From the sequence record MN850585.1: 64,000 bases of DNA. One strand, written 5' to 3'. How positions within the stretch are numbered: the first letter of the stretch is position 1; every line of letters begins with the position of its first letter. The DNA comes from Escherichia phage skuden. The notes below the pieces were generated by a model. It did not search any database, was not told the origin of the DNA, and saw only the letters and a program-made list of their open reading frames with translations. Below, in pieces: positions 46,466 through 61,618 of the stretch. The position numbers and the translations under genes were made by a program.

Positions 46466-46738
46466 TTATACTAAATGCAGCTTTTTACCTTTTACTATGA
46501 TGTAACTCGATGCGCTATTGCTTTGCACATCCTGATAAATTCTGCGCAAACGGCCTTCGTAGTATACTTTCCAACTGGTTGGAATCTTTTTCCCATATCC
46601 TGTAGCAGTTTTTTGTAGTCCTGCAAGTTGCCAATCTAAGATATGTTGTTCGGCTTGTAAATCCTCGAAGTGCATTACACCGTTCACATAGTGACGAAGG
46701 GTTACGTTTAAGGTGCGACCGTTGTTAGTAGTATACAT
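46466..46738 (-). CDS. hypothetical protein (cassette-array gene 9)
   Basis: track ORF 46466..46780; probable start MYTTNNGRT at 46738 with AGGAG RBS. Confidence 0.45.
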   Translation of the reverse strand: MYTTNNGRTLNVTLRHYVNGVMHFEDLQAEQHILDWQLAGLQKTATGYGKKIPTSWKVYYEGRLRRIYQDVQSNSASSYIIVKGKKLHLV

Positions 46739-46762
46739 TTTAAAAGCTCCTAGTTTAAGGAT

Positions 46763-46921
46763 TTTATTTTGACAGTTCACTAATTAAGACATCAAAGATT
46801 ATATCATTATCTGCTACAGTTGCAACACCAGTGATATAATCAATTTCTAAGATAACAACAACTTTCGTACATAAACCGTCATCTATATCATTCCAGACAA
46901 CTTTATCACCTGCACAAAACA
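46763..46921 (-). CDS. small hypothetical protein, 52 aa (below ORF-track cutoff)
   Basis: hand-translated MFCAGDKVVWNDIDDGLCTKVVVILEIDY...; preceded by family A cassette and conserved RBS. Confidence 0.4.
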
Positions 46922-46995
46922 TTTTTTGAATCTCCAGTTTAGGACTTTATTTAGTGGGGGAGGTCATCCCCTCCCCGTTGATGTGTAATTTAATC
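46922..46995 (-). repeat. intergenic cassette family A copy
   Basis: GTGGGGGAGGTCATCCCCTCCCCGTTGATGTGTAATTTAATC. Confidence 0.65.
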
Positions 46996-47011
46996 TATCT
47001 AAAAACCAGTA

Positions 47012-47344
47012 TCAAGAATTTTGTTTTCGTTTGCTCAATTCTTGAACAATTACAGCGTAGTAGTCTTTTAAGTCACTGATATTTAAAGCATTTATCAGAG
47101 AATTATAATCATCAACTAACTGGAAATCATCTTTGAAGATGTCACTTACCTGATAGGTTTTTGCCTTATATCTGAAGCTCATCTCTAGCCGCTTTATTTG
47201 CTCATCACTTAAACGCCCCAGAAAGCTCTCTACAAGGTTATTGCTAACCTGCTGTGTAATTGCCTTATTTGCTAGATTATAGGCTTTATATGCCTTATAA
47301 AGCGCGAAAATGGCAATGATTGCAGTGATGCCAGTCATTAACAT
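47012..47344 (-). CDS. small membrane protein (cassette-array gene 11)
   Basis: 110 aa; N-terminal TM MLMTGITAIIAIFALYKAY. Confidence 0.5.
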   Translation of the reverse strand: MLMTGITAIIAIFALYKAYKAYNLANKAITQQVSNNLVESFLGRLSDEQIKRLEMSFRYKAKTYQVSDIFKDDFQLVDDYNSLINALNISDLKDYYAVIVQELSKRKQNS

Positions 47345-47634
47345 GGTGTTTCCTCTTTACGTGATACTTTGCCATTTACAGTTATCTCATAGGATTCTAA
47401 TAAGTCGTTTTTAGACTTTACAGGGCTTTTAAAAGTATTATCGTAAATATTGACTTGCAATACAGGGTTTTTATACTCCCTACAACTATTCCATAAGCAA
47501 ATCACTACACGACGGCCTTTTATTTTTCCGTGTAACCATTCCATAACATCATGGCTATTTCTTGATGTCTCGATAAAATCAATTTTGTTAAGTAACTTGC
47601 TTAGATTTTCACGGACTTTATTTGATAATTTCAT
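47338..47634 (-). CDS. hypothetical protein (cassette-array gene 12)
   Basis: 98 aa. Confidence 0.5.
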   Translation of the reverse strand: MKLSNKVRENLSKLLNKIDFIETSRNSHDVMEWLHGKIKGRRVVICLWNSCREYKNPVLQVNIYDNTFKSPVKSKNDLLESYEITVNGKVSRKEETPC

Positions 47635-47725
47635 TTTTGAGTCTCCTAGTTTAAGGGTTAATTTGATAAAGCTCTTTATCTGGGGCTATCATATCAGCTT
47701 GTTAGCCCCGTGTAAAGAGGTCTAT
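47635..47725 (-). repeat. intergenic cassette family B variant
   Basis: shares RBS and AAGCTCTTTATCTGGGGCT core; hairpin arms diverged. Confidence 0.55.
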
Positions 47726-48238
47726 TTAGTTCTTAAAGATATTCATCACTGAATCTTTTAATGCTTCCAAACGTTCTAATACTTCAGCCTCTGCGTCTGA
47801 ATTGCTCACCTCTTCTTTTAATCTATCTTCTAAATCCTCACCGTCACTATAGCACCAATCAAAGGCATATCCTAGATAAAAACTCTCTAAAACCGTGTTG
47901 CCATTTGCGTCGATAACTTTCGCGGCAAGGTTGTATTCTGAAGCTTCTAAATCTCTTTCTAGTTCTTTCTGTAAGCTGATGTAAGCCTGTTTTGATGGGT
48001 TTTCCCGGCCTTGTTTTGCATAGTCACTAGAAAGCTGTTTAAGGCTATAATTTAAAGGGATTGCATATTTAAAATCGTTACGCTGACAGTTAGGATTTTT
48101 AATAGTCACGCCGCCTTGATGGTCGTCTGTAAATTCCCAGCCATCAAGATTATGGCTTGCTTCATAACAGTTTACGGCTTCAAAGATGATAGAAAATTTT
48201 TCTTTTACAACTTCAAAGGTAGCTTCTGCAGTTTTCAT
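47726..48238 (-). CDS. hypothetical acidic protein (cassette-array gene 13)
   Basis: 170 aa. Confidence 0.5.
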   Translation of the reverse strand: MKTAEATFEVVKEKFSIIFEAVNCYEASHNLDGWEFTDDHQGGVTIKNPNCQRNDFKYAIPLNYSLKQLSSDYAKQGRENPSKQAYISLQKELERDLEASEYNLAAKVIDANGNTVLESFYLGYAFDWCYSDGEDLEDRLKEEVSNSDAEAEVLERLEALKDSVMNIFKN

Positions 48239-48326
48239 TTTTGAATCTCCAGTTTAGGATTTAGTGGTAAAGCTCTTTATCTGGGGCTTAAGATATCAAC
48301 TTTTAAGCCCCTTGTAAAGTACTTTA
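48239..48326 (-). repeat. intergenic cassette family B copy
   Basis: conserved B-type sequence. Confidence 0.65.
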
Positions 48327-48584
48327 TCAGATTAAATTGCCAGTTAATGATAAGTGCATTTTATAACCTTTTTTGGTAAAAACGTTCACTTTACCGAGTG
48401 ATTTTACACCTTTAAAAAGGTTGTTTGAACTACGTTTTAAGGTTAAATGTTTATCAACCTTTACACCCCATCTTACAGCAGATTGTTTCCCGTTGTCAAC
48501 CACTTTCCCACATAACTTTTTAGCCATAACGCGAGCGTCATCACGAGTTTTTGCAGGAACTACAACGTTTTTGATAATAGCCAT
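48327..48584 (-). CDS. small basic protein (cassette-array gene 14)
   Basis: 85 aa. Confidence 0.5.
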   Translation of the reverse strand: MAIIKNVVVPAKTRDDARVMAKKLCGKVVDNGKQSAVRWGVKVDKHLTLKRSSNNLFKGVKSLGKVNVFTKKGYKMHLSLTGNLI

Positions 48585-48674
48585 TTTTCAGATTCTCCAA
48601 TTTAGGATTTAGTGGTAAAGCTCTTTATCTGGGGCTTACTTTATCGAACTATAAGCCCCTTGTAAAGTACTTTA
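48585..48674 (-). repeat. intergenic cassette family B copy
   Basis: conserved B-type sequence. Confidence 0.65.
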
Positions 48675-49055
48675 TTAGTTAATTTTGAAAATTGTCACAT
48701 AACCATCACTCCCGATGATTTGTGATACCCCAGCTTTTTCTACTTGATAGCCCATGTTTTCAAGATGGTAAACAGCATCATCATAACCATATGCGCCACC
48801 CTGATAACGTCGCTTATCACATTTTATCAGGTTTTTACCGCGTCCAGCAAGTGCATTCAGTACGGCTTTTTCACTTGAAAGTGTACCATCTATCATGGTT
48901 GCCGTGTAATGGTTGATTTTATTCCCATTAATATCATACTTAAAATTGAATGCGTGAACAATAATCAATTTACCGTTAAATTTTTCATCAAGTGACTTCT
49001 CCAGTGCGTTGCGAAAGTTGTCTTTGTTGATGAATTTAGGTGCACGATATGCCAT
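48675..49055 (-). CDS. hypothetical protein (cassette-array gene 15)
   Basis: 126 aa. Confidence 0.5.
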   Translation of the reverse strand: MAYRAPKFINKDNFRNALEKSLDEKFNGKLIIVHAFNFKYDINGNKINHYTATMIDGTLSSEKAVLNALAGRGKNLIKCDKRRYQGGAYGYDDAVYHLENMGYQVEKAGVSQIIGSDGYVTIFKIN

Positions 49056-49141
49056 TTTTGAATCTCCTAGTTTAAGGTTAGTTAGTAAAGCTCTTTATCT
49101 GGGGCTTACTCTATCGAACTATAAGCCCCTTGTAAAGTACT
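49056..49141 (-). repeat. intergenic cassette family B copy
   Basis: conserved B-type sequence. Confidence 0.65.
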
Positions 49142-49348
49142 TTATTTATCGTAGTAGTAAATTGCTGTCTGTCTTATGTACTTTCTTGTATTTCTTGTAA
49201 GGTAGCAATTAGAGTTTATAGCTGTTTCTACATAGTTGCAATAGTCAGCTTCTGATATTCTAGACCATACGTCACATACTTGCATGTAAAAACGTTTTGC
49301 CTTTGTGTTAACGTTGGTTGTAACCATCAATTCGCGACTGTACATCAT
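49142..49348 (-). CDS. small hypothetical protein (cassette-array gene 16, first in transcription order)
   Basis: 68 aa. Confidence 0.45.
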   Translation of the reverse strand: MMYSRELMVTTNVNTKAKRFYMQVCDVWSRISEADYCNYVETAINSNCYLTRNTRKYIRQTAIYYYDK

Positions 49349-49589
49349 TTTGGATTCTCCAGTTTAGGAAGTTGGCTTGCTTGCCCGTCTGATGCAAATA
49401 TTAGATAACCATACTCAAAGAGTCAATAGGAATTTTAAAAATATTTTTTGCAAAGATTGTAATGAAACGGGTGCGCGCGACTACCACAAAACAGAACTAC
49501 AATCAAGAATTATTTTTCAATCCGCTACAAATTTTTCTGTTGACTTTTATTTCCAGATGTGGTAGCCTTGTGAGAAATGGCGACATCCC

Positions 49590-49790
49590 CACCTGCACCC
49601 ACCTACCTGCACAATTCTAAAATGATTTTTCTTGCCCGACCTGAGCGGGGTCTGCACGTTTTGAAAATGAAAAAGCTCTTTGGAGATTACCTGCACAGTT
49701 TGAAAATGAATTTTCTCTTTGGAGTTCAAAATTCTCTCTACAGATTTCTCTACAGAACTCTACCTGCACAATTCTAAAATGAAAAAGCCC
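49590..49790. repeat. four degenerate direct repeats of about 25 bp containing CTGCACA(A/G)TT(C/T)(T/G)AAAATGA
   Basis: copies near 49604, 49650, 49693, 49759 in the intergenic region upstream of the cassette array. Confidence 0.6.
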
Positions 49791-49855
49791 TCCTTACCTG
49801 AAAAATTTACCAGATAAGAAAGGCTTAGTCTATTGTGAATATTCTACAGGGTTTC

Positions 49856-50641
49856 TTAGTTCTTTGCGTCTAAGAAGGTAACTTCTGGTGAAGAGAAAAT
49901 TTCCTCAACATCCTCATCAGTTCTTGCATAGATATATGTATCTGCATCACTGCCAAATGTTACTGCAATCCTGTGATTGCTCTTCGACAGGTGGGTAACT
50001 AGAGCGTTACTTAGAGACATCTTTTCAACCGGAGGGTTACTTTGATGTACCTTACCTTTTCTTCGTCTGAAGAGGGTAACTGTGTCGTCTATGAACACTA
50101 CTACACCTGCAAAGTATTCTGGTTCACAGTAATTCTTCCAACCTGAGCGTAACTTGTGGTACATCTCTCCTTCGTAGACATACAGATAAACATCTACACT
50201 CTTCATCACCTGATTAATGATAACTGTGACGGCTTGAGGGTCTAGTCCACCGATACCTGCACCAATCATAGGTAAGCCAACTTTCTTCAACTGATTAACT
50301 TCACAGTATCTGTTAAGTTGCTTCAAAGATGACTCTAAAGCACTGTATCGGGCATCTTTACCAGTCTTAAGCTGAGTGTAAAGATTGGCTATACGGCCTT
50401 GTTTTAAACGTGCTACAGAGAAATTGCCTAGCAAATTTTCACAGGGTTTGTGACCTATACCACCTGCATACAGATAAACTTCTGTATCGGTCTCATATGC
50501 TTTTGGGTAAAGTTTAGAAATCTTATCAGCGATACCTGCACCCATTAAGTTCATACAGTTGCAACCGTGACCAATAATATCAAACTTACCTTTATCAAAT
50601 GCTGAGAAGATATCCCCATTGATGATTTTTACAATACCCAT
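49856..50641 (-). CDS. macro-domain protein (ADP-ribose binding/hydrolase fold) with C-terminal domain of unknown function
   Basis: 261 aa; GDIF...DIIGHGCNCMNLMGAGIADKI and GLPMIGAGIGGLDP match macro-domain motifs. Confidence 0.6.
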   Translation of the reverse strand: MGIVKIINGDIFSAFDKGKFDIIGHGCNCMNLMGAGIADKISKLYPKAYETDTEVYLYAGGIGHKPCENLLGNFSVARLKQGRIANLYTQLKTGKDARYSALESSLKQLNRYCEVNQLKKVGLPMIGAGIGGLDPQAVTVIINQVMKSVDVYLYVYEGEMYHKLRSGWKNYCEPEYFAGVVVFIDDTVTLFRRRKGKVHQSNPPVEKMSLSNALVTHLSKSNHRIAVTFGSDADTYIYARTDEDVEEIFSSPEVTFLDAKN

Positions 50642-50842
50642 TTAACATCTCTCCCAAGATTCTTTATCCTCTGAAGGTTTTACACGTTGCCCTTCGTGGT
50701 CTACCCAGATACACCCACAACCTTCACAGATTACTGGCATTGCATAACCAGCTTTAAAGTCGTCTTCAGTGATAAGACCTTTTAAGTCACCTGTATCACG
50801 TCCAAACATTTCGATAGAACAGTCTTTGCAGAAGTCAGCCAT
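50642..50842 (-). CDS. small Cys-rich protein
   Basis: likely start MADFCKDCS at 50842; Cys pairs CxxC...CxGCGC. Confidence 0.4.
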   Translation of the reverse strand: MADFCKDCSIEMFGRDTGDLKGLITEDDFKAGYAMPVICEGCGCIWVDHEGQRVKPSEDKESWERC

Positions 50843-51062
50843 TGATAATTGCCTCTTGAATGATGATACCTTTACCACAACGACTTTTAAAGTCTTCCAA
50901 TGGCTGGGAGATAAAGCCACGTAAGCAATAACTGAATGCTAATTTTTTCCTGTAGACTATCACATCATTTGCTGTAAAAGGAATCACTTCATTTCTTCCA
51001 ATAAATACTGCTGACCGGATAATTTTCCGTGTCTTTTTATCTCTGGCTAGAATTACTTTCAT
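50835..51062 (-). CDS. hypothetical protein
   Basis: 75-aa ORF. Confidence 0.35.
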   Translation of the reverse strand: MKVILARDKKTRKIIRSAVFIGRNEVIPFTANDVIVYRKKLAFSYCLRGFISQPLEDFKSRCGKGIIIQEAIING

Positions 51063-52967: not shown

Positions 52968-53663
52968 TCAATGTTTTACTAACATAGTTTTAATGTGCGG
53001 AAGGATTCTGTTTACCTTCTGAACATTCTTCTCTGTATCTTCTATAAAACATACTATATCAAAGTAAGGAAGAATGCAAGACTGAATCATCCTAACTTTC
53101 AAACTTTCTGCATTTATAGAGTTAGTTCCAAAACCGCGCATAAAAAGCATGTAATCGTGCTCTATGTTATGCCTTAAGAACATCTCAGTAGGTATTCTCT
53201 GAGATTCACCTCTCGCTGTCAAGAGTCCAATGGCAGCGTGATTAGCAATTGCATCAATAATATTGAAAACATACGTTGGTTTTGCTCTTACAGAGTCAAG
53301 AAGATTAGTGTACTGAGAGAATGACCCATCAGTCAATTCCGTTGAGCAATCTTCGTGATTAAAATTTGTAAGAACACCATCAATATCTGCTAAGATGAGG
53401 TTACCTTTTTCTACAAGGTCTTTATTGACTATGACTAAACTGTCACGTCTCACACCTATAGATTGTCCAGTCTCTTTGTCCACAACGTTCACAATTGGTT
53501 CTGATGTGTGGAACTCTTCAAGTGAACATACAACTTCTCTTGCAGTGTCTTCAAAATCCCTGCACTGTTCTGGAGTCCATATACAGGAATCAAGACCTAA
53601 CTCATGAGGATGCAAGTCGTAAGCATGACACAGTACTTCATCAGACTTTCTTAATTTTTTCAT
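52968..53663 (-). CDS. HAD-superfamily phosphatase-like protein
   Basis: 231 aa; motif LILADIDGVLTNF (DxDG); precise activity unknown. Confidence 0.45.
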   Translation of the reverse strand: MKKLRKSDEVLCHAYDLHPHELGLDSCIWTPEQCRDFEDTAREVVCSLEEFHTSEPIVNVVDKETGQSIGVRRDSLVIVNKDLVEKGNLILADIDGVLTNFNHEDCSTELTDGSFSQYTNLLDSVRAKPTYVFNIIDAIANHAAIGLLTARGESQRIPTEMFLRHNIEHDYMLFMRGFGTNSINAESLKVRMIQSCILPYFDIVCFIEDTEKNVQKVNRILPHIKTMLVKH

Positions 53664-58423: not shown

Positions 58424-60205
58424 TTAAAGCTGCTTGTCAATATTATTTCGAATATCACCAAGAGATGTGTAACCGAACTGCTCAGAGTCACTAAAGACTA
58501 AACGTAAAGCACAAGCTGGATGTTCAAGCACATCTGCAAAGCTCTGGAATCCATAGCCATCTACAGCTTTCAGCTTATCACCATCCCACATAGGTGCTAC
58601 ACCACCAAAAGCAGACTTCTTAACACCACTATCTGTTTTAGGGTCTTTTGCAAGCATAATCTCTTTACCACCAATACTTGCAAGAGTTGCTTTGACAGCA
58701 AATGCAAAGGTGTCACGAGTCATGTACTGGTAAGTGTAAGAACCTACACCAAACACTACGTTAGAGCTTGCAAAACCCATTTCATACAAACGCTTCAAGA
58801 TTTCGTTTGCACGTTCCAACGTGATAGAGTCACCATAAATAAGCCCGATGTGCTCATCCAGTACTTTAAAACCTTTAGAGTTGATAGTTCCTCCAAAGAT
58901 GTTATACAGTGTCTTGATAGCTCCATCAATCTCAGCTACAGGACGTGTTACAACGTTTGCAGAACCAACCATATAAGCATTTTTCAACATCACTGTATCA
59001 GCAACTTCAAAGTCTTCTCTGTCAACAACCATTTCGTAGCCTTCTGATAGTAGCCATCCAGCAATACCATAGCTGATGTTTTCAAGCTTCATGTTCAGAA
59101 CAGCATCCAACATTGTGTCACTAGCTTCCAGCTTGCTTAGGTGCTCGTAATAAGCCTTTTTAGCACACTCTAAGTGGATTGCTTTATAACCTGTGACAAT
59201 GTGTACAGGGTCTCCAGAGTCAGGACGAATTACCAGTTTTCCATCACGTTCCATAATTTCTTTACGAAGTGCTGGTAAAATTTCTGACACAGTTCTCCAG
59301 AAGTTATAAGTGTCTGAAACAACACTTGCAATACCTGTTGGGTAAGTTTCTGTTAAGAAACGACGGAAGGTTTGTAACTCACCTTTAAAGCGTCTTTCTT
59401 CTTCAATCAACTCATTACCACCTTCCCAAGCAATGTTTGCACACATTACAGAGTGCTCAGTGGCTGGTACAGAGCTACCAATATCAGAGATTGGGTAGGA
59501 CTGTCCATAGATTCGTTTAGCCGTATACACAGCAGGGAAGCTATCAGTTCCTTTAAAGCTGGTTAAGTGGCCTACAGCGTTAAATGCGTCATCAGTAAAG
59601 CCGGACATACCACGCATAGCAAAGTCATGGCACTGATAAGGCAAATGCAAGTCGTTGTCACAAGTAAGGTCAGCCCACTTCTTACAGATACGTTTGTAGT
59701 GCAATGCAATAGTTGCAATGGTACAAGCCTTCCAAATCTCAGCAGAGAAAGCATCTTCCAGATAGCCTGCTACCCAATGGAAACCTGAAACAGTGTTCTG
59801 GAAAACAATCATCGGAACACGCATAGGGACAACTGTGCCCTCTTCTACAGCGTATACTTCAACTGGTAGATAACCTAAGTCGTGAAGTGCTTCCCAATGC
59901 TCTCGACCGATAGCATCTTTGCCCAGAACACCATTCATGACTTCTAAGATTTCGTCAATTGCTTCTTTTTTGTCACGTTCAAAGAACGTAGCATTCCAGT
60001 GGTCTATCAAGTAATCTTTAACAAAACGTTGAATACCAAAAGCGACTACACCATCAATTGCTAATGGACTGTTAAACCATTTGTCGCTACGTGGTGTCAG
60101 GTTCAACATAAGATATTGCGTAGCATCTGGATACTGATATATATGTGATGCCTTGTAAGCATCTGCATTAAGACCTGCTGGTACTGCGTAAAGTGACTTA
60201 CTCAT
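58424..60205 (-). CDS. nadV: nicotinamide phosphoribosyltransferase (NadV/Nampt)
   Basis: 593 aa; NADAYKASHIYQYP, HDFAMRGMSG...SFKGTDS, VPATEHS, VVSDTYN, IRPDSGDP align to Nampt motifs as recalled. Confidence 0.85.
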   Translation of the reverse strand: MSKSLYAVPAGLNADAYKASHIYQYPDATQYLMLNLTPRSDKWFNSPLAIDGVVAFGIQRFVKDYLIDHWNATFFERDKKEAIDEILEVMNGVLGKDAIGREHWEALHDLGYLPVEVYAVEEGTVVPMRVPMIVFQNTVSGFHWVAGYLEDAFSAEIWKACTIATIALHYKRICKKWADLTCDNDLHLPYQCHDFAMRGMSGFTDDAFNAVGHLTSFKGTDSFPAVYTAKRIYGQSYPISDIGSSVPATEHSVMCANIAWEGGNELIEEERRFKGELQTFRRFLTETYPTGIASVVSDTYNFWRTVSEILPALRKEIMERDGKLVIRPDSGDPVHIVTGYKAIHLECAKKAYYEHLSKLEASDTMLDAVLNMKLENISYGIAGWLLSEGYEMVVDREDFEVADTVMLKNAYMVGSANVVTRPVAEIDGAIKTLYNIFGGTINSKGFKVLDEHIGLIYGDSITLERANEILKRLYEMGFASSNVVFGVGSYTYQYMTRDTFAFAVKATLASIGGKEIMLAKDPKTDSGVKKSAFGGVAPMWDGDKLKAVDGYGFQSFADVLEHPACALRLVFSDSEQFGYTSLGDIRNNIDKQL

Positions 60206-60221: not shown

Positions 60222-60713
60222 TTAGTTATGTCTTGCAAACTCACCATGAAGTTCTATTCGCTTTTTAATTACAGCTTCTTTTGCTTCTTCTACCGTTTTA
60301 AATCTTCCACAAAAGTATTCTTTATGGTAAAGCATGACTCTTGCTTTGTAAAGACCTGTTTGTTTACAAAAACTTACACCCTTCACACCAGTTTTATTAT
60401 TCTTGTATATACCCCTATTCCTCTGATTTTGTGACTTTGTGCTAAGTCTTAAATTCTCCAACTTATTATTAGATTTATCAAGGTCTATGTGGTCTATCTC
60501 ATATCCACTTGGTATCTCACCTCCAGACATAATCCATGCAATATTATGTGCATAGTACCTCTTCTTATTTATCTGGACTTGGATATAACCCTTCTTAGAC
60601 CTTGTGCCAGCAACATTACCAGCAATAGCGGTATTGCAAAGGGTTACTTTCCAAATTAGTAAACCTGTCTCCGGTTCGTATATTAGGTATTTTTCGAAGT
60701 AACCCTTATCCAT
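60222..60713 (-). CDS. HNH homing endonuclease with AP2-type DNA-binding domain
   Basis: 163 aa; HNH core YYAHNIAW...EIDHIDLDKSNNKLENLRL; C-terminal GVKGVSF...YKARV...FKTVEEA AP2-like; free-standing between nadV and prs. Confidence 0.7.
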   Translation of the reverse strand: MDKGYFEKYLIYEPETGLLIWKVTLCNTAIAGNVAGTRSKKGYIQVQINKKRYYAHNIAWIMSGGEIPSGYEIDHIDLDKSNNKLENLRLSTKSQNQRNRGIYKNNKTGVKGVSFCKQTGLYKARVMLYHKEYFCGRFKTVEEAKEAVIKKRIELHGEFARHN

Positions 60714-60721
60714 TTTAATAC

Positions 60722-61618
60722 CTAATCCAAATTTGCTACAGTAACTTGACTATAATGTGTTAAGCCACGGTCTTTAGCTTCGCCTAAAGAATTTGTAGTG
60801 TAAATATGGTCGATACCGTTGTCAAGAAGGTTTTCAACACCTTTAGAGAAGATACCATGTGTTACATAAAGCTCAACACGTTTTGCACCTGCTTCACGTA
60901 GGTGTTTAGCTGCCTCTACGAAGGTTCGACCACCATCACAGATATCATCAAGAATCATGACAGTTTTATCTGTCAAATCCACATCATCAAGGATTCGCAT
61001 ACCAGTAATTTCACCAGTCTGAAGGTTACGTACTTTAGACATTGTGATGTATGGTTTATCCACCTCTTTAGCAGTCTCTGCAATCTTCTTAGAAGCACCT
61101 GCATCTGGGGCTACTAAGTAATCAACCAGTGGGTCATTTGCATAATGGACTGCAATCTCCTTTTGAGGAATACTCTGGAAGCAATTGAAAAGGTTATCTG
61201 GAACGTAACTATGAGGGTCAACTGCACAGACTGCATCAAAACCCATTGCATTAACCTGTTGTGCAAACACTTTCAAAGCTGCTGCATCACCTTTAAACAT
61301 GTGACGGTCGTAACGTGCATTTGGCAAATAGTAAAAGATAGCAGTCCTCATAGCAAACTTATGAGGTACTAAATCATCAATTGCCTCTTTAGCGAGTGCC
61401 ACAGCAAATAATGTGTCTTTGTCATAACCCTTTACAATCATAATCACGTTGTTGATGGATGATGCAGCATAAGCAGTAAAATCAACAAACTCTGGTGAAA
61501 AATGTCCACCAATCTCACCAGAGGGAAATTGGACGATGTTAAACTCTTCTTCATGAGTCCCTTTAGTTGGTGAATGAACTGTAACACGGATAGATGTTTT
61601 CATAGTTTTCTCTCTCAA
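60722..61618 (-). CDS. prs: ribose-phosphate pyrophosphokinase (PRPP synthetase family)
   Basis: 298 aa; MILDDICDGGRTFVEAAKHLREAGAKRVELYVTHGIFS matches the PRPP-binding loop; LVAPDAG flexible loop. Confidence 0.8.
   Translation of the reverse strand: MREKTMKTSIRVTVHSPTKGTHEEEFNIVQFPSGEIGGHFSPEFVDFTAYAASSINNVIMIVKGYDKDTLFAVALAKEAIDDLVPHKFAMRTAIFYYLPNARYDRHMFKGDAAALKVFAQQVNAMGFDAVCAVDPHSYVPDNLFNCFQSIPQKEIAVHYANDPLVDYLVAPDAGASKKIAETAKEVDKPYITMSKVRNLQTGEITGMRILDDVDLTDKTVMILDDICDGGRTFVEAAKHLREAGAKRVELYVTHGIFSKGVENLLDNGIDHIYTTNSLGEAKDRGLTHYSQVTVANLD

Follow-up and report, generated by a model that had tools for sequence, protein, structure and literature searches.

A macro-domain fusion protein of Felix O1-like phages as a candidate counter-defence hydrolase of ADP-ribose adducts

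What might a macro-domain protein do in a phage that already encodes a pathway for rebuilding NAD+? The question is raised by a gene in the 64,000-nucleotide stretch of Escherichia phage skuden DNA (MN850585.1) that was analysed here as a whole and is called the window. The window comes from a Felixounavirus (Felix O1-like), and the 5-kb neighbourhood of the gene shares 92–96% identity with numerous phages of Escherichia and Salmonella, Bas63 (JohannRWettstein) among them. Felixounaviruses, whose hosts are E. coli and Salmonella, are a large group. NARP1 was discovered in the model phage Bas63, and genes 79–80 of this phage are the founding example of that system. In NARP1, ADPR is pyrophosphorylated by Adps, and Namat adds nicotinamide to give NAD+, so that NAD+-depleting defences are overcome. 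By analogy with characterised relatives, the macro enzyme is very probably used in counter-defence. It can also be considered probable that it acts there as some kind of ADP-ribose-1''-adduct hydrolase; which adduct it would act on is weighed below.

The gene, its family and its neighbourhood

The gene is an ATG-to-stop open reading frame of 261 codons plus stop at positions 49856–50641. These coordinates agree with the original prediction, but the strand had to be corrected to minus; the plus strand contains many stops in this region. The protein is known already. Annotations of it exist in hundreds of genomes, and functions have been published for members of its family. The Bas63 orthologue, Bas63_0095, is annotated as a “putative phosphatase”, and some database records list the orthologue as an O-acetyl-ADP-ribose deacetylase. 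The window and Bas63 proteins are 100% identical in the macro domain and 92% identical in the C-terminal domain. PHROG 335 (“phosphatase”) covers the full-length protein (E 1.4e-112) and is also matched by the C-terminal 116 residues alone (E 4.7e-38), so the two-domain architecture is that of an existing phage family. What is new is the orphan, fast-evolving tail. The protein is included in neither the Adpp set nor the AdfM set that have been published.

The macro domain occupies residues 1–156 (50174–50641, minus strand) and belongs to the Poa1p-like/TARG1-DarG-like class. The motifs from which it had originally been recognised, GDIF (residues 9–12), DIIGHGCNCMNLMGAGIADKI (21–41) and GLPMIGAGIGG (122–132), were all found, and a profile search confirmed the assignment: PF01661 matched residues 25–141 over profile positions 2–117 of 118, scoring 32.3 bits where the gathering cut-off is 22. 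The protein has the macro fold, a three-layer alpha/beta/alpha structure with two ADP-ribose-binding loops. These loops are conserved; the second, the glycine-rich GAGIGG (residues 127–132; 50246–50263), aligns with the IGCGLD loop of TARG1, and its G127, A128, G129, I130 and G132 are invariant columns. His25 (codon at 50567–50569, in GHGCNC) lies inside an H-x-C-N-C motif, is invariant in 19 homologues and aligns with His24 of the Adpp protein of Vibrio phage Gary. In the HMM alignment to OARD1/TARG1, the invariant Gln90 (codon at 50372–50374, in NLYTQ) replaces the catalytic Lys84, and Gly131 replaces Asp125. The Lys84 position is equivalent to that of the catalytic lysine of DarG (Lys80).

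The macro gene was originally described as functionally linked to a “NadV/Prs NAD+ salvage module” in the same gene block. The two genes are real, but they are those of NARP1 rather than of classical salvage. Namat (the earlier “NadV”; 58424–60205, minus strand), the nicotinamide ADPR-transferase, is 98% identical to Bas63_0080, and Adps (the earlier “Prs”; 60722–61618, minus strand), the ADPR pyrophosphokinase, is 79% identical to Bas63_0079, both over the full length. A functional link is plausible through the Adpp precedent. The macro gene lies outside the NARP1 operon and is kept in a Felixounavirus without NARP1. The NARP1 genes are located 7.8 kb upstream on the same strand, and the approximately 14 genes in between include rIIA, rIIB, a PNK-like gene, spanins and about 10 small ORFs; by the published criterion, a gene of the NARP1 operon is positioned no more than two genes from Adps or Namat (10.64898/2026.01.28.702374). 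Terminator-like hairpins were found between NARP1 and the macro gene (52481–52464) and after the macro stop (49826–49785, minus strand). The latter, predicted by a consensus scan, has a 17-bp stem and a T-run and follows the stop codon at a distance of about 30 nt. The macro gene is thereby predicted to be the last gene of a transcription unit of its own.

On the other side, the stop codon of a 66-aa ORF (50642–50842, minus strand; PHROG 2210, no function annotated) abuts the macro start codon, and the two genes are probably co-transcribed. This zinc-ribbon-like CxxC...CxxC ORF occurs in Felixounavirus/Mooglevirus loci and not upstream of distant two-domain relatives. For this reason, it was rejected as an obligate partner of the macro protein. 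In the window, the NARP1 operon is itself split by a 163-aa HNH_3 homing-endonuclease ORF with a weak AP2 match (60222–60713, minus strand), situated between Adps and Namat and missing from Bas63. The lower identity of Adps than of Namat to Bas63, beside this ORF, suggests homing-associated sequence exchange.

Two sets of repeats lie downstream of the macro gene. CATTTTnnAAnnGTGCAG occurs four times at 49607–49781 (minus strand), spaced 39–73 nt from start to start, just beyond the terminator-like hairpin and within an ORF-poor spacer (49349–49855); the chance expectation is about 0.04 copies. The 27 Felixounavirus/Mooglevirus-type loci all have between one and four copies at the same place, and the other 59 loci have none. 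The copies probably form a regulatory or promoter array, and the opposite-strand ORFs 0096 and 0097 annotated at this spacer in Bas63 may be non-genes. Further downstream, a 102-nt direct repeat is present three times between small genes (48238–48339, 48586–48687 and 49056–49157; 72–84% identical to the reference copy), with weaker copies near 47629–47717 and 46920–47018. These intergenic copies are likely to be repeated promoter/leader regions. An Rfam search of 46500–51000 gave no match.

Published relatives and the possible substrates

Three recent studies bear on the function of the macro domain. The RES-domain defence aRES cleaves NAD+ to nicotinamide and ADPR-1''-phosphate, a product that NARP1 cannot use, and Gary Adpp (gp137) defeats aRES by dephosphorylating this product (Osterman et al., 2026 preprint, 10.64898/2026.01.28.702374). 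Mutations of Adpp abolish anti-defence according to the legend of Fig. 3B of that study, and H24A appears as an Adpp mutant in a primer entry of its Table S4 (10.64898/2026.01.28.702374). In T4, deletion of tk.4 leads to sensitivity to DarTG2, and the gene has been renamed adfM, for anti-DarT factor Macrodomain (HIDEN-SEQ preprint, 10.1101/2025.11.20.689424). A second AdfM, PhiKZ gp104, strips ADP-ribose from DarT2-modified ssDNA in vitro. The pairs of Gary Adpp with aRES and T4 Tk.4 with DarTG2 lend weight to the original suggestion that the protein counters ADP-ribose-based immunity; no specific support emerged for its other part, a role against Thoeris signals.

The window protein, T4 Tk.4 and the Adpp set have an HxxNC / ..Q / glycine-loop signature in common. 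In pairwise comparisons of the macro domain, identity was 34–38% to the Tk.4 clade (84–97 bits), 37% to Namat-adjacent macros such as that of contig L061 and 27–36% to the proteins of Table S1 of the Adpp study; the values for Gary Adpp and PhiKZ gp104 were 27% and 24%, respectively. A Tk.4 orthologue from a Tequatrovirus, recognised as such because it lies between vs and tk, matched with 34% identity, 84 bits and E 6e-25. A profile of the NARP1-associated macros (the Adpp set) scored the window domain at 117 bits, and one of the Tk.4 clade scored it at 99 bits. In a bootstrap neighbour-joining tree, whose deep nodes have less than 25% support, the window protein did not fall inside the Tk.4 clade, and the NARP1-adjacent macros were spread over at least two separate clades. 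DarG profiles gave weak matches of equal strength to each of the three types of phage macro. The sequence alone does not decide between the functions of Adpp and AdfM, and the pattern is consistent with a single enzyme family for ADP-ribose 1''-adducts in general.

The reading preferred here, tentatively, is an AdfM/DarG-like counter-defence enzyme directed at DNA or another macromolecule, whose tail would serve for binding. The Poa1p-like macro domain would bind ADP-ribose, remove the attachment at the ribose 1'' position and free ADPR. In this way, ADP-ribose placed on phage DNA by host toxins such as DarT2 would be stripped off. The C-terminal domain, as a non-catalytic and fast-evolving binder, would bring the enzyme to the macromolecule on which it acts, or would bind a host effector directly, a two-domain logic as in DarG, set on an unrelated fold. 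A downstream use of the freed ADPR by Namat is possible. In this reading, the substrate, the counter-defence role and any binding role of the C-terminal domain are inferred. Several facts argue against this reading. The AdfM that is biochemically proven, that of PhiKZ, is of the DarG type and only 24% identical, the evidence for T4 AdfM is genetic only, and Gln90 stands at the position of the TARG1 catalytic lysine. Moreover, the C-terminal domain is similar neither to that of DarG nor to any nucleic-acid-binding fold, and its charge is not conserved.

Since the His essential to Adpp is conserved and the phage carries NARP1, it is nearly as likely that the protein works as an Adpp in trans (a “split NARP1-AP”). 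It would convert ADPR-1''-phosphate made by aRES to ADPR, from which the phage Adps and Namat would rebuild NAD+. Exactly this activity is possessed by Gary Adpp, the His targeted in H24A aligns with the invariant His25, the N-terminal motif is closest to the ADPR-1''-phosphatase Poa1p among solved proteins, and the profile score is higher for the NARP1-associated macros than for the Tk.4 clade. NARP1 by itself is defeated by aRES, and RyDEP provides the precedent of an accessory enzyme supplying ADPR to NARP1. The table of aRES homologues includes Escherichia, Salmonella and Citrobacter genome entries (10.64898/2026.01.28.702374). The macro fusion and Namat are also co-inherited, with the order Namat-rIIA-rIIB-...-PNK-...-macro retained in two-domain relatives that are only 33–35% identical. 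Namat is found upstream in nearly all two-domain loci whose covered flank includes that position, the clear exception being contig L012. Finally, single-domain relatives that are 37–38% identical (L061 and L070) overlap the Namat stop codon.

The same hypothesis leaves the extra domain unexplained, and the identity to the validated Adpp is low. The macro gene is separated from the NARP1 operon by about 14 genes and terminator-like sites, is retained in L012 without NARP1, and has allele histories independent of those of Adps and Namat (see below). In addition, the Adpp list published as Table S1 has no entry for a Felixounavirus, nor for any phage of Escherichia, Salmonella, Citrobacter or Erwinia (10.64898/2026.01.28.702374). 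On balance, the AdfM-like reading is placed slightly ahead, and the two are not mutually exclusive. A literature search found no published direct experiments on Bas63 g95; the gene was not flagged by PhageMaP on Bas63, where DarTG and aRES were not among the systems screened.

L061 (8385–10456) and L070 are metagenomic phages, one of them on a contig of about 247 kb. Their Poa1p-like macro gene (151 aa) and Namat share one base, the final one of the Namat stop codon, at which the macro gene starts; an Adps-like gene follows 4–6 kb further. These loci are further examples of a NARP1-AP-type organisation in which the operon is dispersed.

The 1''-linked substrates of macro domains in the Poa1p-like/TARG1-DarG-like class are varied. 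The protein could, accordingly, hydrolyse another ADP-ribose conjugate or signal, such as RNA or protein modified by other ADP-ribosyltransferase toxins of the host, O-acetyl-ADPR or immune signals derived from ADPR, with specificity set by the C-terminal domain. The solved relatives include O-acetyl-ADPR deacetylase/TARG1, in line with the annotation of the orthologue in some records, and a variable, replaceable tail suggests changing targets. We regard this option as unlikely. No close relative with such a function has been characterised, the Lys84/Asp125 dyad of TARG1 is missing, and the neighbouring genes lack functional assignments and none indicates a specific alternative. Still further down the scale is housekeeping nucleotide metabolism with no defence role, for example the clearing of ADPR-1''-phosphate from RNA repair or a 2'-phosphotransferase, tied to the PNK-like gene 2.3 kb upstream (52968–53663). 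It is true that Poa1p natively handles the ADPR-1''-phosphate by-product of tRNA splicing and that the PNK-like gene is also present in distant syntenic relatives. T4-type PNK/ligase repair is not known to generate ADPR-1''-phosphate, and host–phage conflict is indicated by the cassette-like replacement of alleles, by the faster evolution of the tail and by the counter-defence phenotypes seen in relatives, so that this explanation is highly improbable.

The C-terminal domain and allele exchange

Residues 157–261 (49859–50173, minus strand) form the C-terminal domain of about 105 aa, and the original description of a fused domain with no recognisable motif was borne out. Structure prediction, which had been proposed for this part, indicates an independently folding unit of one helix, six beta-strands and a second helix (pLDDT 79.4, pTM 0.71). 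No known structure matching it was found, nor any likeness to the C-terminal domain of DarG or to a nucleic-acid-binding fold. When 1.84 billion representative proteins were searched with a profile, the domain was recovered only in fusion with this macro domain, plus fragments, and it was found only in the Felix O1-like phage lineage. The remaining matches of the profile (PQQ/BamB beta-propellers, Sortilin/Kelch-type repeats, PAS-annotated repeats and retrotransposons) were rejected as spurious because each of them matched short stretches repeatedly.

Both domains are under constraint, and the C-terminal domain evolves faster. Among 20 Felixounavirus alleles, dN/dS was 0.18 in the C-terminal domain and 0.065 in the macro domain; between genera, identity was 48–55% and 76–81%, respectively. 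Only P174 and G179 of the C-terminal domain are invariant and Y236 nearly so, and the domain looks non-catalytic. Its charge varies among homologues, with pI from 4.6 to 9.8, and generic DNA binding by the tail is not supported because this charge is not conserved. A DarG-like toxin-binding C-terminal domain was ruled out on sequence and fold. The domain can also be replaced: a related macro domain carries an unrelated tail of about 105 aa in Erwinia phages. In these phages of about 84.6 kb (L033:8486–9268 and L034:10001–10783), the macro domain of a 260-aa protein groups with the two-domain clade, and its tail, missed by the C-terminal profile, is either different or unrecognisably diverged. 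In a 339-aa protein (P0026), the same macro type is fused to a C-terminal PF20274 domain, so the macro head has been joined to different tails more than once. Features of this kind are typically seen in a module that interacts with a variable partner.

Exchange is also seen at the level of the whole gene. In the loci L031 and L032, the flanks are 85–95% identical to the window, and a deeply diverged allele replaces the gene between approximately codon 48 and a point some 50 nt beyond the macro stop. The macro gene moves as a cassette. Adps and Namat of these loci are 97–99% identical, whereas the macro domain is only 53% identical. Bas63 is the converse case, with a diverged Adps and an identical macro domain. 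The macro gene recombines independently of Adps/Namat, and the two have separate allele histories. An association of the divergent L031-type allele with the host was rejected, as the 14 database phages that carry it are split between Escherichia and Salmonella phages. Loss was observed as well. In one Felixounavirus contig (L012:1–5441), Adps and Namat are cleanly missing between a Bas63_0078-like gene and rIIA, so NARP1 is an accessory module within Felixounavirus; the macro gene is kept there, with a macro domain 99% identical.

Constraint, fast evolution, cassette exchange and the Erwinia tail swap make the orphan domain a candidate new specificity or inhibitor module. A more speculative proposal, which we think unlikely, is that phages have convergently re-invented DarG. 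A Poa1p-like head, possibly acting on both ADPR-1''-phosphate and DNA-linked ADP-ribose and supplying NARP1, would be combined with a new, diversifying tail that neutralises a variable host effector (DarT-like, aRES or other), and the alleles, exchanged as cassettes between Felixounaviruses, would be matched to host variants.

The two main readings differ in their consequences. A published estimate gives about 15% of NARP1 phages as carrying an associated macro protein, from a survey that considered only genes no more than two positions from NARP1 (10.64898/2026.01.28.702374). If the window protein is an Adpp in trans, this estimate is too low because of that limit, and more than 200 further phage genomes would already be equipped against aRES. 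If the preferred AdfM-type reading is true, anti-DarTG counter-defence reaches a new phage family. Either one raises the question of whether both substrates are handled by one Poa1p-like macro family, and the host system is genetically tractable, which makes this question directly testable.

Comparison with known systems

Gary Adpp has in common with the window macro domain the H-x-C-N-C motif including His24, the ...Q motif and the glycine-rich loop, and the genomes of both encode Adps and Namat. At 27% identity, the two differ in location, as Adpp lies in the NARP1 operon and the window gene 7.8 kb and about 14 genes away. The window protein is not in the published Adpp list, and its extra 105-aa domain is present in none of the listed Adpp proteins compared.

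T4 Tk.4 has the HGCNC / NLYTQ / G(A/C)GI(G/A)G signature of the window protein, shows the highest pairwise similarity of the characterised relatives (34–38%, E about 1e-25 to 1e-29) and is likewise encoded among small early-type genes. Tk.4 is a single-domain protein of about 159 aa, in contrast to the two-domain window protein, and no T4-like macro locus had NARP1 within 10 kb. PhiKZ gp104, with VNV and FPTK and no His in place of HGCNC and NLYTQ, is a true DarG-type macro and clearly of a different subfamily.

DarG itself is further away. The window protein reaches 48.2 bits on the DarG model NF048014 (NCBIfam) against a cut-off of 250, over profile positions 4–154 of 338 only. The catalytic lysine site, represented by FPTK in PhiKZ AdfM, reads LYTQ in the window, with Gln90 in place of the lysine; the C-terminal domains are dissimilar, and no DarT partner gene is present. 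Human TARG1/OARD1 (C6orf130) differs in its Lys84/Asp125 dyad, replaced by Gln90/Gly131. Yeast Poa1p (PDB 6LFQ) is the solved protein that best matches the window N-terminal motif. It is about 22% identical overall and is a single-domain eukaryotic enzyme for the clearance of a tRNA-splicing by-product.
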